Source: Acutalibacteraceae bacterium (GTDB lineage: Bacteria; Bacillota; Clostridia; Oscillospirales; Acutalibacteraceae). From it: a DNA stretch of 64,000 bases. Each line of letters starts with the position of its first letter. Position 1 is the first letter of the stretch. Both the position numbers and the translations under genes were made by a program. Positions 4,023 through 60,423 of this stretch are shown here, piece by piece. The notes under the pieces were generated by a model that saw nothing but the letters and a program-made list of their open reading frames with translations, was not told the origin of the DNA and made no database searches. The stretch covers positions 2,825-66,824 of the forward strand of contig JBGVGM010000044.1 of NCBI GenBank assembly GCA_045121655.1, given 5' to 3'.

Positions 4023-5846
4023 ATGTGTGGAATTGTTGGATATATCGGAAAAGAAAAAGCTGTGCCATATCTGCTTTCAGGTCTCCAAAAGCTTGAATAC
4101 CGTGGATATGATTCGGCAGGTATTGCACTTCACGGTTCAAAAGGTATAGAGGTACACAAATGCGAGGGCAGAGTCAGTGCTCTTTGTGAAAAAATCAAGG
4201 ACAAAGCTTTCAACAGTACTGTCGGAATAGGCCACACACGTTGGGCAACCCACGGCGAGGTTTCCCAAAGCAACGCCCATCCCCACGTCAGCTATAAAGG
4301 TGTTTTTGCCGTAGTTCACAACGGCATAATCGAAAACTATGCTGCGCTGAGAGATAAGCTGAAGGACGAGGGTTATCCCTTCGTTTCTGACACTGACACC
4401 GAGGTAGTCGCCCATCTTCTTGAGCGTGATTACAACGGCGATCTTATTTCTTCACTTATGAACACAGTAAAAAAGCTTGAGGGCTCTTTTGCTCTTGCCA
4501 TACTTTGCAAGGATTTACCCGACACCATAATACTCATTAAAAAGGAAAGCCCCCTTATAGTCGGGAAGAGTGCTGACGGCTTTTTTGTAGCATCTGACAC
4601 TAATGCACTTTGCGGTTTTGCTAATGAAACTATAAAGATGCACGACGGAGAAATTGCTGTTCTTACAAAGGAAAAAGCCACCTTTTATCTTCCTGACGGT
4701 CACGAGGTTTACAGAAAATTTGTGTCCGAGGATTTGTGCTGCAATGATACTGAAAAAGGCATTTTTCCCCACTTTATGCTGAAAGAAATTTTTGAACAGC
4801 CCGAAGCTGTCAGTGCCACCTTTGATTCTATCAGTGAGAAAAAAGATGAGCTTTTAAAAGAGTTTGCCTTTGCTTTTTCAAAAGAAAAATCTACTGAAAG
4901 GATTTACATTATCGGCTGCGGCTCAGCTTATCATGTGGCAGCGGCAGGTAAATATGTCTTTGAAAAGCTCACGAAAATTCCCACCGAGGCAGTTATCGCG
5001 AGTGAGTTCTGCACCGCCGATTTTCCCGTAAACAGATACAGCCTTTGCATTTTCATTTCACAAAGCGGAGAAACAGCGGACACCCATTCTGCTTTAAAAA
5101 AAGCAAAAGAAAAAGGCGCTTATATTCTCTCTGTTGTAAACGTTAAATCAAGCTCCGTCGCCTTAAAAAGCGACAAGGTTATTTACACAAAGGCGGGGCC
5201 TGAAATTGCCGTTGCAACCACAAAAGCTTACACTTCTCAGCTTACAGTGGTTTATTTTCTTGCCGTTCTTTTCGGTTATTGCAGTAAAATTTTAAACGAG
5301 GGCGACTATCAATACTACCTGAATGAGCTTTCCTGTCTTTCCGAGAAAATCCAGGGAATTCTGCACCGTAAAGACGAGCTTATCAAGATGGGAAAGCTGC
5401 TTTCCTTACAATCAAGCTTACGCTTTATCGGTAGAAATACAGATTATGCCGCAGCTATGGAGGGCGCTTTGAAAATGAAGGAAATCAGCTACATTCCCTG
5501 CGAGGCCTACCCTGCAGGCGAGCTGAAGCACGGCACAATTTCCCTCATTGAAAAAGGCTCACTGACCGTCGCTCTTTGCTGTAACGATTACGTTTTTTCA
5601 AAAACTGCAAACAGTATTGAAGAAATACGCTCAAGAGGCGGTGACATTATTACAATAACCACCGAAAAGCACGCAGAGGACCTTTCTGCTCTTCAAAGAA
5701 AAATCATTATTCCCGATACAGATGACCTTTTTGTAACTCTTCTCGAAGCTGTACCCTTACAGCTTCTAAGCTACTACACCGCAAGTGAAAAGAACTGCGA
5801 TATTGATAAACCGAGAAACCTTGCAAAATCCGTTACAGTAGAGTGA
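4023..5846 (+). CDS. glmS: Glutamine--fructose-6-phosphate aminotransferase
   Basis: ORF track, 607 aa. N-terminal MCGIVGYIG nucleophile, two SIS domains, C-terminal ...KPRNLAKSVTVE. Confidence 0.97.
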   Translation: MCGIVGYIGKEKAVPYLLSGLQKLEYRGYDSAGIALHGSKGIEVHKCEGRVSALCEKIKDKAFNSTVGIGHTRWATHGEVSQSNAHPHVSYKGVFAVVHNGIIENYAALRDKLKDEGYPFVSDTDTEVVAHLLERDYNGDLISSLMNTVKKLEGSFALAILCKDLPDTIILIKKESPLIVGKSADGFFVASDTNALCGFANETIKMHDGEIAVLTKEKATFYLPDGHEVYRKFVSEDLCCNDTEKGIFPHFMLKEIFEQPEAVSATFDSISEKKDELLKEFAFAFSKEKSTERIYIIGCGSAYHVAAAGKYVFEKLTKIPTEAVIASEFCTADFPVNRYSLCIFISQSGETADTHSALKKAKEKGAYILSVVNVKSSSVALKSDKVIYTKAGPEIAVATTKAYTSQLTVVYFLAVLFGYCSKILNEGDYQYYLNELSCLSEKIQGILHRKDELIKMGKLLSLQSSLRFIGRNTDYAAAMEGALKMKEISYIPCEAYPAGELKHGTISLIEKGSLTVALCCNDYVFSKTANSIEEIRSRGGDIITITTEKHAEDLSALQRKIIIPDTDDLFVTLLEAVPLQLLSYYTASEKNCDIDKPRNLAKSVTVE

Positions 5847-54996: not shown

Positions 54997-56958
54997 TTAT
55001 TTTTTCTCTTTGGTTTTTGCAGCTGTTTTCTTCTCCGGCTTTTCAGAGATTTTTTTAGCTGCTCTTTTTGCTTTGGGCTTGTGCTTAAGGTAAATGCATG
55101 AGAATCCGGGAATGTCAACGCTTATGCTGTTTTCGAAGCCGTGCATGGGAATCTTCTTTGAGGTTGCCTTGGTTTTTGTTCCCTTGCCGTCGCCGCCGAA
55201 CTCTTCAGCATCTGTGTTGAGAATTACCTCATAGCTTCCCTCAGCAGGTACACCGAAGCAGTATTTTTCGCGCATAACCGGTGTAAAGTTACAGATTGCA
55301 ACAACAGTTTCTCCCTTCTTATCCTTTCTTGCAAAAGCAATTACACTGTTATTATTATCGTCACTTACAAGCCACTGGAAGCCTTCCCAGCTGTAATCAA
55401 TCTCCCAGAAGGCGGGAGTTTTTGCATAAAGATGATTAAGCTTCTTGACATAATCCTTAAGCTGTCTGTGCTTATCGTATCCGAGAAGAAGCCAGTCAAG
55501 ACCGCTGTCGTACTTCCATTCAATAAACTGACCGAATTCCTGACCCATAAAGGTAAGCTTTTTACCCGGGTGAATCATCATATAAGCAAGGAATGAACGT
55601 ATCCCCTTGAATTTATCGTCATACTCACCGGGCATTTTGCCGATAAGAGAGCATTTGCCGTGAACAACCTCATCGTGGGAAATCGGCAGAATGAAATTCT
55701 CAGAGAAAGCATAGAAGAACGAGAAGGTAAGAAGGTTGTGGTTAAACTTTCTTGAAAGTCCGTCCATCGAGAAATATCTCAGAGCATCATTCATCCAGCC
55801 CATATTCCACTTGAAGTTAAAGCCGAGGCCCCCGATATCTGTAGGCTTTGAAACAAGGGGCCACGCTGTGCTTTCTTCGGCAATCATAAGCACGCCGGGG
55901 AAGTCTCTGAAAATTCCGCTGTTGAGCTTTCTCAAGAATTCAACCGCTTCAAGGTTTTCGTTTCCGCCATCCTTGTTTGCCATCCAGTGACCGTCTTCTC
56001 TGCCATAATCAAGATAGAGCATTGAAGCAACCGCGTCAACACGAAGACCGTCTATGTGATACTTATCAAGCCAGAAGGCAGCCGAGCTTGTAAGGAAGGA
56101 TATAACCTCGTTTCTTCCGAAGTCGAATACCTTTGTACCCCACTGAAGATGCTCACCCTTCTTGGGATTTTCATATTCGTAGCAGGCTTCGCCGTCAAAC
56201 ATAGAAAGTCCGTGCTCGTCCTTGGGAAAGTGAGCAGGCACCCAGTCGAGAATTACCGAAATTCCGCTCTGGTGGCACTTGTCAACAAAGTACATAAAAT
56301 CGTGGGGTGTGCCGTATCTTGAGGTCGCTGCAAAATATCCCGTTACCTGATAGCCCCAGGAGCCGTCAAAGGGATATTCACTCATAGGCATAAGCTCAAG
56401 GTGAGTATATCCCATATCCTTAACATAGGGCACAAGCTCATCGGCAAGCTCTCTGTAGGAATAAGTGTTGCCGTCGTCGTGGATTTTCCAGGAGCCTGCG
56501 TGAACCTCGTAGATGTTCATGGGAGACTCGTAAACGTTAGTAGTTTTCTTTTTATCCTGCCACTTTGTGTCGCCCCACTTATAGCCGTTAAGCTCATAAT
56601 ACTTTGAAGCTGTGTCAGGTCTTGTTTCGGCGTGAAAAGCATAAGGGTCGCACTTGGCAGTTTTCTTGCCCGAAGCGGCTGTTACGAGAATCTTGTAATT
56701 ATCGTAAACCTTAACGCCGCTGATGTAAGCTTCCCACATTCCCGCATCGTTGATTTTCTGAAGGGGATCTGCGTTTTCATTCCAACCGTTGAAATCACCG
56801 ATTATGCTGACTGCTGCAGCGTGAGGAGCCCACACTCTGACAGAGAAAAGGTCCTTTTCGCCTTCCACTCTGTGGACACCCATATATTCGTACGCTCTCA
56901 TATTATTGCCCTGATGGTACAGATAAAGAGCTAAATCGTCGCCTCTCTTTTTAGTCAT
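54997..56958 (-). CDS. glgB: 1,4-alpha-glucan branching enzyme (GH13) with a lysine-rich C-terminal tail
   Basis: ORF track, 653 aa. Motifs [37 protein letters not shown]. Tail is [27 protein letters not shown]. Confidence 0.95.
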
Positions 56959-57217
56959 TTCAACACTCCTTTTTTTATGATGGTAAGCCCACTGCCCCCA
57001 TCATTACATTTATTCATATATCATAATAGCACTCCTTGAAATAAAATTCAATAGTTTTTGGCATTTTGTTACAAGGTGATTAAAAACTATTCATATATTT
57101 TAGTTACTTTGTTAGAAGAATTCTGTCAAATTATAAGATTTCATCCATTTTATATTGCAGCTTTTATACCTGAAGCCTGCGTAAACAGCTTTGTCTTTGT
57201 AAAAAGGCCGGAAATTC

Positions 57218-57246
57218 TGTAAAAACATGCCATTTTGTGATATAAT
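57218..57246 (+). promoter_or_regulatory. Orphan extended -10 promoter pointing into the structured element
   Basis: TGTAAA (57218-57223), 17 nt, TATAAT (57241-57246), preceded by TGa (TGnTATAAT consensus). There is no downstream + strand ORF. Confidence 0.4.
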
Positions 57247-57288
57247 ACATTTATCAACAAAAGCTAAGCTCCCTCTTTCTTAAAAGAA

Positions 57289-57425
57289 CGGGCGCCGACA
57301 AAATCAAAGCAAGAAATCCCCGAAGATTTCTTGCTTTGATTTTATTCTGTCAAAGACAGAATCGCCGAAAGAAAATCTTCACCCCGTCTGAAAGGCGAAG
57401 ATTTTCTTTCGGCTGTCGGCGCCCG
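57289..57425. other. 137-nt perfect nested palindrome that folds as a four-way junction; candidate ncRNA or palindromic DNA element
   Basis: Outer stem 57289-57299/57415-57425 (11 bp). H1 57300-57318/57325-57343 (19 bp). H2 57344-57351/57355-57362 (8 bp). H3 57365-57380/57397-57412 (16 bp). All pairs are Watson-Crick with no mismatches. Confidence 0.7.
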
Positions 57426-57454
57426 GCTTACCGGTTATCGCCATTTAACTTTAA

Positions 57455-57493
57455 CCAAAACTCCGACAGATAGCGGATGTATCTGTCGGAGTT
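57455..57493 (-). terminator. Terminator of the second decarboxylase beta-subunit gene
   Basis: Perfect 13-bp stem: AACTCCGACAGAT (57459-57471) with ATCTGTCGGAGTT (57481-57493). On the minus strand TTTTGG follows. Confidence 0.8.
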
Positions 57494-57500
57494 CAAAATT

Positions 57501-58691
57501 TTATTTACCGAACATCGCAAGAAGAAAGCCGGCAGCAACTGCTGAACCGATTACACCTGCAACATTGGGACCCATTGCGTGCATCAGAAGGAAGTTCTTG
57601 GGATTGTACTTCCTACCTTCTGCCTGTGAAACTCTTGCTGCCATGGGAACAGCTGAAACGCCTGCTGAACCGATGAGAGGATTAACCTTACCGCCCGTTA
57701 CAAGGTAAAGAAGCTTACCGAGCAGAAGTCCACCCACAGTTGAGAAACAGAACGCAAGAAGTCCGAGAACAACAATCATAAGTGTCTGAGGTGCAAGGAA
57801 GGTCTTTCCGTTTGCTGTTGCACCAACTGTAAGGCCAAGCATAATTGTAACAATGTTCATCAGCGCATTCTGAGCCGTGTCACTGAGTCTGTCAACAACA
57901 CCGCATTCCTTGAAGAGATTACCCAGCATAAGCATACCGAGAAGCGGTGCTACTGAGGGAAGAATAAAGGCACAGATTATGAGAACAACAACAGGGAAGA
58001 TTATTTTTTCTGTCTTGCTTACTTTTCTCAGCTGCTTCATTTCAACCTTGCGTTCCTTCTCTGTTGTGAGAAGCTTCATTATAGGGGGCTGAATGAAGGG
58101 AATAAGAGCCATATATGAGTAAGCGGCAACTGCGATAGGTCCGAGAAGGTGAGCAGCAAGCTTTCCTGCGAGGAAAATCGCTGTAGGACCGTCTGCGCCA
58201 CCGATAATTGCAATTGAAGCCGCTTCCTCGGGTGTAAAGCCCATAAGAATAGCAATTACAAATGCAACATAAATGCCAAGCTGAGCTGCTGCGCCGAGAA
58301 GAAGTGAAACCGGGTTTGAAAGAAGAGGTCCGAAGTCAGTCATACAACCGATGCCGAGGAAAATAAGGCAAGGGAAAATACTGCTCTTAACACCTGCATA
58401 AATCAGTCTCAGAACGCCCGAATCGTACCAGTGTGCACCTTCAATAATATTTGATGTATCCATAATTCCCGTGGGGTCATCCATAAGTCCTGCACCGGGA
58501 AGATTCGCAAGGAGTATACCGAATGCGATAGGTACAAGAAGAAGCGGTTCACATTTCTTTGCAATTGCAAAGTAGAGAAGAATACATGATACAAGTATCA
58601 TTACAAGGTTTTGCCAAAGGAATGATCCGTCTGCAAAAAGAGCAAAAAAGCCTGATGCTTCCCAAAGGCCCATAAGAACATCCTTAATCAT
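57501..58691 (-). CDS. Na+-translocating decarboxylase beta subunit (OadB/GcdB/MmdB family), copy 2
   Basis: ORF track, 396 aa. Shares [19 protein letters not shown] and [27 protein letters not shown] with copy 1. Confidence 0.85.
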
Positions 58692-59316: not shown

Positions 59317-60423
59317 TTATTTACTGAAGAATGTAAGGATAAGACCGCCTGCAATAACAGAAGCAATCTGACCTGAAACGTTAACACCGATTGAGTGCAT
59401 AAGAAGGAAGTTCTGATTATCTTCCTCAAGACCCATTTTATGAACAACACGGGCTGCCATGGGGAAAGCAGAAATACCTGCGGCGCCTATCATGGGGTTG
59501 ATCTTCTTCTTTGAGAAGAGGTTCATAAACTTTGCGAGCATAACACCTGCAAAGGTATCGAAGATGAATGCGAAAAGTCCGAGACCGATAATGAGAAGGG
59601 TATCAACCTTGAGGAAGTCCTCTGCACGCATCTGAGAAGCTATGGTAAGGCCGAGGAAGATTGTGATAAGGTTTGCAAGAACCTTCTGTGCTGTTTCTGA
59701 AAGAGAGTTAAGTACACCGCATTCACGGATAAGGTTACCGAACATAAGGAAGCCGATAAGCGCAACTGCGTCGGGAGCTACAAGACCTACAATAACTGTA
59801 ACAACGATGGGGAAGAGAATCTTTGTAAGCTTTGAAGGCTGCTTGCCCTGAGTGTTATCCATACGGATGAGACGTTCCTTCTTTGTTGTGCAAAGCTTGA
59901 TGATAGGCGGCTGAATAAGGGGAACGAGAGCCATATAGGAATAAGCCGCAACCATAATTGCACCGATATACTTTGAGCCGAGCTCCATTGAAACCGCAAT
60001 AGCTGTGGGACCGTCTGCCGCACCTATAATACCGATTGAAGCAGCGTCCATAATATCGAAGCCTAAAAGTGATGCAAGACAGAGGGTGAAGAAAATACCG
60101 AACTGTGCTGCCGCACCGAAGAGCATAAGCTTCGGATTCGTAAGTAACGGCGTAAAGTCAATCATAGCACCGATACCGATGAAAAGAATAAGGGGCATAA
60201 GCTCGCCGAATTCATTCGAGATACCGAACTTGAAAATAACGTCAATAACGTGCTGAGCGCCTGAATTGGGAAGGTTTATAAGGATTGCACCGAAGCCCAT
60301 GGGGAGAAGAAGAGAGGGCTCCATTTCCTTTTTGATTGCAAGGTAAATAAGTATTGCGCCGATAATCCACATCGCAACCTGCTTGAATTCAAGAGTCGCA
60401 AAATTCGCAAACAAGTCTGCCAT
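59317..60423 (-). CDS. oadB: Na+-translocating decarboxylase beta subunit, copy 1
   Basis: ORF track, 368 aa. Motifs [46 protein letters not shown]. Confidence 0.88.
   Translation of the reverse strand: MADLFANFATLEFKQVAMWIIGAILIYLAIKKEMEPSLLLPMGFGAILINLPNSGAQHVIDVIFKFGISNEFGELMPLILFIGIGAMIDFTPLLTNPKLMLFGAAAQFGIFFTLCLASLLGFDIMDAASIGIIGAADGPTAIAVSMELGSKYIGAIMVAAYSYMALVPLIQPPIIKLCTTKKERLIRMDNTQGKQPSKLTKILFPIVVTVIVGLVAPDAVALIGFLMFGNLIRECGVLNSLSETAQKVLANLITIFLGLTIASQMRAEDFLKVDTLLIIGLGLFAFIFDTFAGVMLAKFMNLFSKKKINPMIGAAGISAFPMAARVVHKMGLEEDNQNFLLMHSIGVNVSGQIASVIAGGLILTFFSK

Follow-up and report, generated by a model that had tools for sequence, protein, structure and literature searches.

The intergenic region considered here lies within a window of 64,000 nucleotides, the whole stretch of DNA that was analysed, which is core chromosome (it carries ribosomal protein genes and rpoA) and whose proteins have near-identical counterparts in metagenome-assembled genomes (MAGs) labelled Clostridia, Ruminococcaceae or Acutalibacteraceae; the organism is an uncultured Clostridium of the gut. 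The genes on either side are both encoded by the minus strand, an oadB-like gene for the beta subunit of a sodium-translocating decarboxylase (57501-58691) and glgB, encoding the glycogen branching enzyme (54997-56958). The oadB-like gene ends in an intrinsic terminator whose hairpin has 14 bp, rather than the 13 bp counted in an earlier note on this DNA, and which could also end a transcript of the plus strand, where the hairpin is followed by CAAAATTTTATTT. The glgB gene has its own promoter at approximately 57051-57023, preceded by a strongly conserved block and located downstream of the structured element that is the subject of this analysis (Table 1), and the element therefore falls outside the glgB leader. 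A scan of 20 window ORFs with Pfam found no transposase.

Two further observations concern the neighbouring operons. Just upstream of the glgB -35 box, a block at 57046-57122 is almost identical in five lineages, with the rest of the spacer unalignable. An inverted repeat of 10 bp, AATAGTTTTT-N24-AAAAACTATT, lies within the block, which probably serves as the binding site for a regulator of the glycogen operon. The decarboxylase operon includes two beta-subunit genes (57501-58691 and 59317-60423) in the window and in contigs L001, L004 and L147, and a single one in L002 and L003.

Table 1. Position and character of the repeat and of its immediate context in the window.
Feature	Position	Strand	Description	Basis or conservation
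Promoter-like site (context)	57218..57246	+	TGTAAA (57218-57223), 17-nt spacer, TGATATAAT ending at 57246	Sequence
Outer stem, left arm	57289..57299	.	CGGGCGCCGAC, conserved terminal inverted repeat of the family	Identical in L001, L049 and L148
Hairpin H1	57300-57318 / 57325-57343		19 bp, perfect; 6-nt loop CCCGAA	Identical in L001
Hairpin H2	57344-57351 / 57355-57362		8 bp, perfect; loop AAA	Identical in L001
Hairpin H3	57364-57380 / 57397-57413		17 bp, perfect; 16-nt loop	Differs in L001
Outer stem, right arm	57415..57425	.	GTCGGCGCCCG, 11-bp GC-rich pairing with CGGGCGCCGAC	Sequence and folds
Subterminal motif	57427..57436	.	CTTACCGGTT; family consensus CTCACCGGTT, which is AACCGGTGAG on the opposite strand	
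Intrinsic terminator of the oadB-like gene (context, outside the repeat)	57459..57493	-	14-bp hairpin, then TTTTGG on the minus strand	

The element is a four-armed fold of 137 nt (57289-57425), in which an outer stem encloses three hairpins, with linkers of 0, 0, 1 and 1 nt between arms and hairpins. The earlier note had described a perfect palindrome in the form of a four-way junction, and both the sequence and the folds bear this out, as they do the lengths of 19 and 8 bp given for the first two hairpins; the third hairpin has 17 bp instead of 16, and the total is 55 Watson-Crick pairs instead of 54, with no mismatch and no G-U pair. Hairpins H1 and H3 both contain AAGAAA(A)TCTTCG, and the 9-mer previously seen to be common to them, CGAAGATTT, is found at 57321-57329 and 57396-57404. 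The ORFs that cross the element are short and implausible, in agreement with the first reading of the sequence.

Folded as RNA, the two strands have minimum free energies (MFE) of -87.9 and -94.5 kcal/mol (z = -11.7 and -12.8), and none of 200 shuffled sequences was equally stable; MFE folding of either strand recovers the four-way junction exactly. With DNA parameters the departure from shuffled sequence is larger on both strands (z = -15.3 and -15.8). Long perfect inverted repeats are scarce in the 64-kb window, a search of it tolerating up to 3 mismatches found no further copies, and when 161 kb of low-GC DNA was scanned generically for perfect hairpins lying next to one another in chains, only the window element and its relatives came up. 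At a permissive threshold, Rfam gave only sub-threshold noise of the miRNA-hairpin type for the window element and for the copies in L049 and L002 described below, consistent with the initial impression that the window element belongs to no named RNA family.

On the plus strand, upstream of the element, lies the promoter-like site with an extended -10 that the earlier note had assigned to the element. The site is present in the sequence, and was omitted from a consensus promoter scan because its -35 hexamer fits the consensus at only three of six positions, but its assignment to the element does not stand. In L002, a close relative of the window organism, the spacer at the same locus holds a gene of the DAPG-hydrolase family, oriented as the window plus strand. 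The sequence TCTATTATATCACA, immediately upstream of the DAPG_hydrolase start, is homologous to TGTATTATATCACA in the window, which in the plus-strand reading is the TGTGATATAAT promoter. On the simplest reading of this homology, the window site is a promoter that has outlived its gene; it is thus probably a leftover from a DAPG-hydrolase-type gene and not part of the element, as judged from sequence comparison. A tblastn search of the window for a remnant DAPG-hydrolase pseudogene found nothing. The minus strand of the same stretch (57150-57275) contains, just beside the element, a putative 36-codon ORF with a TTG start and, 8 nt before it, a strong ribosome-binding-like sequence (GAGGGAG-N8-TTG); this GAGGGAG is the reverse complement of the C/U-rich tract to which the earlier note had drawn attention.

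Homologous copies were found both at the window's own locus and elsewhere. At the locus itself, a metagenomic contig encoding an identical decarboxylase protein (L001) carries the element, with H1, H2 and the outer stem unchanged. In its H3, 7 nt of one arm are deleted and the loop is inverted, matching the window loop at 13 of 16 positions when reverse-complemented versus 6 of 16 when read directly. The nearby terminator also differs between the two, by two compensatory changes in the stem and a flipped loop (57473-57479, five of seven bases matching after flipping). The element is absent at this locus from L003 and L002, where the decarboxylase protein is 95-96% identical, and the spacer is otherwise unalignable. 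In the oadB-glgB spacer of a 95%-related strain, L146, positions 2128-2165 hold CGGGCGCCGAT and a 10-bp hairpin (AAACATTTTTC GTG AAAAATGTTT) without a second arm, a possible relic of a decayed copy, or a chance occurrence.

The second locus came from a genome scan covering one genome per species, in which the two arms were sought 90-120 nt apart. The matches listed were mostly chance occurrences in high-GC DNA, the only real relative among them being L049, a Clostridia MAG from sheep rectum. Here (5647-5771) identical arms surround three different hairpins of 13, 20 and 13 bp, the last with one G-T pair, joined by 1-nt linkers; the right arm is followed by TCTCACCGGTT, the window counterpart of which is GCTTACCGGTT. 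The neighbours of this copy, a small Cys-rich ORF with a terminator and a gene for a MATE transporter, are unrelated to those in the window. Two further members of the sheep-gut Clostridia lineage, L148 and L154, carry the element at the same MATE locus; in L154 the right arm reads GTCGGTGCCCG, creating a G-T pair in the outer stem. The small ORF directly upstream of the MATE exporter (5395-5550 in L049; also in L148 and L149-L155) is itself conserved, encoding 47-51 amino acids rich in Cys, Gly and Asn (MFCNNNCSW...CGCGCNCGCQNDCNRSCGC), with an in-frame indel in one strain, and its product could be a small secreted or modified peptide.

A third locus emerged when about 161 kb of low-GC DNA was searched with the arm sequences, two mismatches at most being tolerated. 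This copy lies in L002 (424-560), between the divergent genes mnmE and oadA, a spacer that in the window is without the element. It consists, in order, of GAACCGGTGAGTAC, GGGGCGCCGAC, three hairpins and GTCGGCGCCCC. The hairpins have 12-13 bp, 14 bp plus a 1x1 internal loop plus 8 bp, and 12 bp, respectively, and the outermost pair of the outer stem formed by GGGGCGCCGAC and GTCGGCGCCCC is altered in both arms, a paired change. The copy folds with z = -14.5, and the folds of all copies are similar (z between -9 and -14.5). Its first hairpin module (CCTGAATGAAAAA...) is homologous to the first of L049 (alignment score 19, z = 11.8 against shuffles). This is the one shared module that we claim, as the remaining similarity between modules of different loci is weak (z = 2-5) and consists of low-complexity A/T runs.

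From the three independent loci, all of them intergenic and drawn from about 161 kb of relevant DNA, a member of the family can be described as a sequence of 125-137 nt with an 11-bp GC-rich terminal inverted repeat, a AACCGGTGAG flank motif and three hairpin modules separated by linkers of 0-2 nt. The sequences and lengths of the modules differ freely among copies, and each remains a hairpin. The flank motif adjoins the outer stem in the window, L001, L049, L148, L154 and L002; elsewhere in the 161 kb it has only matches with one mismatch, inside genes. In each copy it is well kept on one side and degenerate on the opposite side (for instance CTTGCCGTTT in L002 and ACCGG in L148).

Searches farther afield were negative. 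A scan of metagenomes with the terminal 22-mer gave no further copy, returning high-GC soil coding sequences and L135, in which a lone arm with the motif sits in apparently coding-like sequence and is probably a chance match. Viral contigs, scanned with the outer-stem pattern, H2 and the terminal 22-mer, yielded a single chance match in a high-GC gene (L005), and BLAST of three copies against plasmids and phages found nothing relevant. A string search of the literature for the arm and motif sequences returned primers only. In the rplI-dnaB spacer of Listeria newyorkensis (L095, 1621-1739), an imperfect single hairpin of 119 nt is closed by exactly the same 11-bp arms; it is without the flank motif, without a three-hairpin interior and without an Rfam match at a permissive threshold, and the identity of its arms with those of the Clostridia family is probably a coincidence. 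Separately, near-perfect palindromes of 120-170 nt occur on contigs of high-GC MAGs, some of them near contig ends (L114, 5088-5210; L091, 3495-3619; L093, 850-984); these look like fold-back assembly artefacts, not biology.

The strains that share a locus offer a view of how copies change. Strains whose MATE proteins are 100, 98 and 97% identical carry the element at the MATE locus, and those at 95% and 92% do not. In the strains without it (L155 and L149-153), the stretch from the stop codon to the promoter, terminator included, is different and shorter. The comparison of L049 with L154 gives identities of about 97% for the spacers, 92.8% for the MATE gene and only 80.6% for the element. The middle hairpin shows two fully compensatory transversion pairs in the lower stem and a rewritten upper half, the other stems and the outer stem gain G-T pairs and a few mismatches, and the loop of the terminator is exactly inverted, from TTATT to AATAA (5/5 bases). 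Differences between L148 and L049 are all one-sided and amount to 4 substitutions in 125 nt, compared with a difference of 5.6% in the neighbouring gene. Given the neighbouring gene, the divergence of the element is within the range for unconstrained sites, which argues against a strong constraint on the sequence of the interior; some constraint may nonetheless exist, in view of the very low divergence between L049 and L148. The non-Watson-Crick pairs in the L049 series comprise about 5-6 G-T pairs on one strand versus 2 A-C pairs, an excess with which an RNA read off that strand would also be compatible.

In all, three loop inversions were seen between close strains. Since the loops of ordinary terminators flip too (5/7 and 5/5 bases), loop inversion is common at hairpins in these genomes. 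Template switching by the polymerase at inverted repeats is known to homogenise the arms and to invert spacers or loops (PMC8604942, PMC8794818), and the loop flips, paired changes and arm homogenisation fit such replication template switching on DNA palindromes, as far as sequence comparison goes. Template switching would thus explain the perfect pairing without invoking selection on an RNA. At all three loci the well-kept flank motif is on the G-rich strand, as defined by GC skew (n = 3), which is a weak hint of a single-strand, replication-linked mechanism.

Several explanations of the element have to be weighed. The earlier note had left the choice between a small RNA and a DNA-level element of the REP or MITE type, leaning towards the latter, and that leaning is borne out by copies with the same termini at two unrelated loci, by variable presence among strains and by changes of the palindrome type. 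A cruciform or an ssDNA-origin-like element, also named in that note, may be kept as a candidate; the copies gave no plasmid or phage match. The alternative, an independent structured sRNA of about 240-250 nt that starts at the promoter-like site, ends at the terminator hairpin and acts through its C/U-rich 5' tract as an anti-Shine-Dalgarno sequence, has in its favour a promoter-like site on the plus strand with, downstream of it, a hairpin that precedes CAAAATTTTATTT, the extreme stability of the fold, and the fact that imperfect pairs in the L049 series are mostly G-T on one strand. The promoter, however, has its homologue in front of a protein-coding gene that L002 carries at this position; no comparable promoter accompanies the L049 and L002 copies, which are also oriented differently with respect to the genes beside them. 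None of the other copies has the C/U tract, not a single loop or junction nucleotide is conserved, and the stems are unlike among loci (19/8/17 bp versus 13/20/13 and 12/22/12, with completely different sequences). With no Rfam match, and both strands folding equally well, we regard an sRNA as distinctly unlikely, and the anti-Shine-Dalgarno idea is set aside along with the notion of the promoter as part of the element.

A cis-acting structure selected by the host at operon borders, whether as a bidirectional block to transcription, an insulator or a stabiliser of mRNA ends, is also unlikely, if slightly easier to entertain. At two of the three loci the element lies 25-35 nt from the upstream gene's terminator and precedes the promoter of the next gene, and AAAA and TTTT flank H1, as they would in a two-way terminator. 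A terminator role has been proposed for clusters of hairpins (PMC8355165), and a role in stabilising transcripts has been suggested for repeats located at operon 3' ends (PMC3049150). Against this, the L002 copy lies between divergent genes and is downstream of neither, the adjacent genes each already have a terminator of their own, the element is absent from close relatives at all three loci, and such a role would leave unexplained why unrelated loci share an identical 11-bp stem and flank motif. The conserved inverted repeats around a segment of about 105-115 bp, just upstream of promoters, could in turn suggest an invertible DNA switch, whereby an invertase acting at the 11-bp repeats flips the interior and alters expression of the downstream gene; the hairpin module shared by L002 and L049 adjoins the well-kept flank motif in the former and is far from it in the latter. 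This difference in module order is explained without inversion by the presence of a degenerate flank motif on the other side (see above). Moreover, the opposite orientation of the interior was seen in none of the strains compared within a locus (2 + 3), a consensus scan found no promoter inside the segment, no recombinase gene is nearby, and a palindromic interior would be left nearly unchanged by inversion, all of which make a switch very improbable. Finally, a meaningless one-off palindrome produced by local template switching would account for the perfect, young-looking pairing with no G-U and for the single copy in the 64-kb window, but is refuted, to a near certainty, by the existence in other genomes, at two unrelated loci, of copies that share its termini, flank motif and architecture.

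The explanation we favour, which we hold to be somewhat more probable than not, is that the element belongs, as one of several copies, to a dispersed and non-coding family of nested-palindrome repeats, similar to REPINs, BOX elements and MITEs, in uncultured Clostridia of the ruminant gut. The family is most likely selfish or neutral DNA and not a dedicated RNA gene, and we infer that it has no dedicated host function. It would appear to be mobile, judging solely by its dispersal to unrelated loci and its presence or absence among close relatives. No target-site duplication or clean empty site was found at the three loci, the whole spacer being different in relatives without the element, and no transposase or recombinase was present among the called genes around any copy.

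REPINs, which are doublets of REP sequences, consist of two conserved sequences in inverted orientation, separated by a spacer that is constrained mainly in its length and its capacity to form a hairpin and in which compensatory changes are frequent, and they are mobilised by RAYT transposases (PMC3116915). The present family likewise has short, conserved, GC-rich inverted sequences, a less conserved, hairpin-capable spacer with compensatory changes, an extragenic location and a predicted single-strand fold, and its 11-bp arms recur at three loci around unrelated interiors made of hairpins. It differs in that the spacer forms three hairpins in a four-way junction, as opposed to the one long hairpin of REPINs, in that the hosts are low-GC Clostridia, and in that the conserved end has no evident imperfect palindrome of the REP type. 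The gene for a RAYT, which is a Y1 HUH transposase, or an IS200-like gene was found neither among the called genes around the copies nor, using Pfam, among the 20 window ORFs.

BOX elements of the pneumococcus, composed of boxA, repeated boxB and boxC, have paired conserved ends and self-folding internal modules that vary between strains, and their empty sites and target duplications are hard to find (PMC3049150). Here too is a composite intergenic repeat of a Firmicute in which paired end modules enclose independently folding, variable internal modules, an arrangement seen in all copies. However, boxB occurs in a variable number of tandem units, whereas each complete copy of the present family always has three modules of unrelated sequence; its stems are perfect or nearly so, and no sequence similarity to BOX was found. 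With MITEs such as Correia, RUP and ERIC the family shares small size, lack of coding capacity, strong pairing, dispersal between genes, variable presence among strains and, in all copies, an 11-bp terminal inverted repeat, which is perfect in the window. MITE copies are normally alike over their full length, whereas in the present family the interior varies from copy to copy. No direct repeats that could be a target-site duplication flank any copy, and the plasmid and phage searches gave no match that could be a parent insertion sequence. The non-coding RNAs of retrons (msr/msd) also have an outer stem, formed by terminal inverted repeats, around several hairpins, some of them long and nearly perfect. 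Yet no reverse transcriptase gene adjoins any copy (the neighbours being oadB and glgB, the small ORF and MATE, and mnmE and oadA), and the sequence of the outer stem is conserved between copies, which is not a feature of retrons.

A mechanism can be suggested for the maintenance of the family. The conserved termini would be recognised by a mobilising or recombining enzyme, the likely substrate of which would be the folded single strand exposed during replication, as in REPIN and IS200-type systems. The interior would be kept as near-perfect hairpins mainly through template switching between arms, with changes copied from arm to arm and loops flipped in the process. Located between the oadB terminator and the putative leftover promoter, the window copy is probably transcribed incidentally, on both strands. 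A more specific version, which we offer tentatively and consider rather unlikely as it stands, is a REPIN-like mobile element of low-GC Firmicutes in which the folded single strand, an immobile four-way structure resembling a Holliday junction, is the substrate of a structure- and sequence-specific enzyme that reads only the 11-bp stem and AACCGGTGAG; the three hairpins inside would in that case be filler that is free to vary and renews itself, with template switching keeping the pairing perfect.

If its multi-copy nature is confirmed, the family would add a structured interspersed repeat to the uncultured gut Clostridia, in which such a repeat is apparently undescribed, and would represent a natural example of conservation confined to a closing stem, with the interior constrained only to stay as hairpins. 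The strain comparisons provide, in miniature, a picture of the evolution of palindromic DNA, with loop flips, homogenisation of arms and decay to G-T pairs. Such elements may pass for small-RNA genes or riboswitch-like leaders in genome scans, and may break metagenome assemblies.
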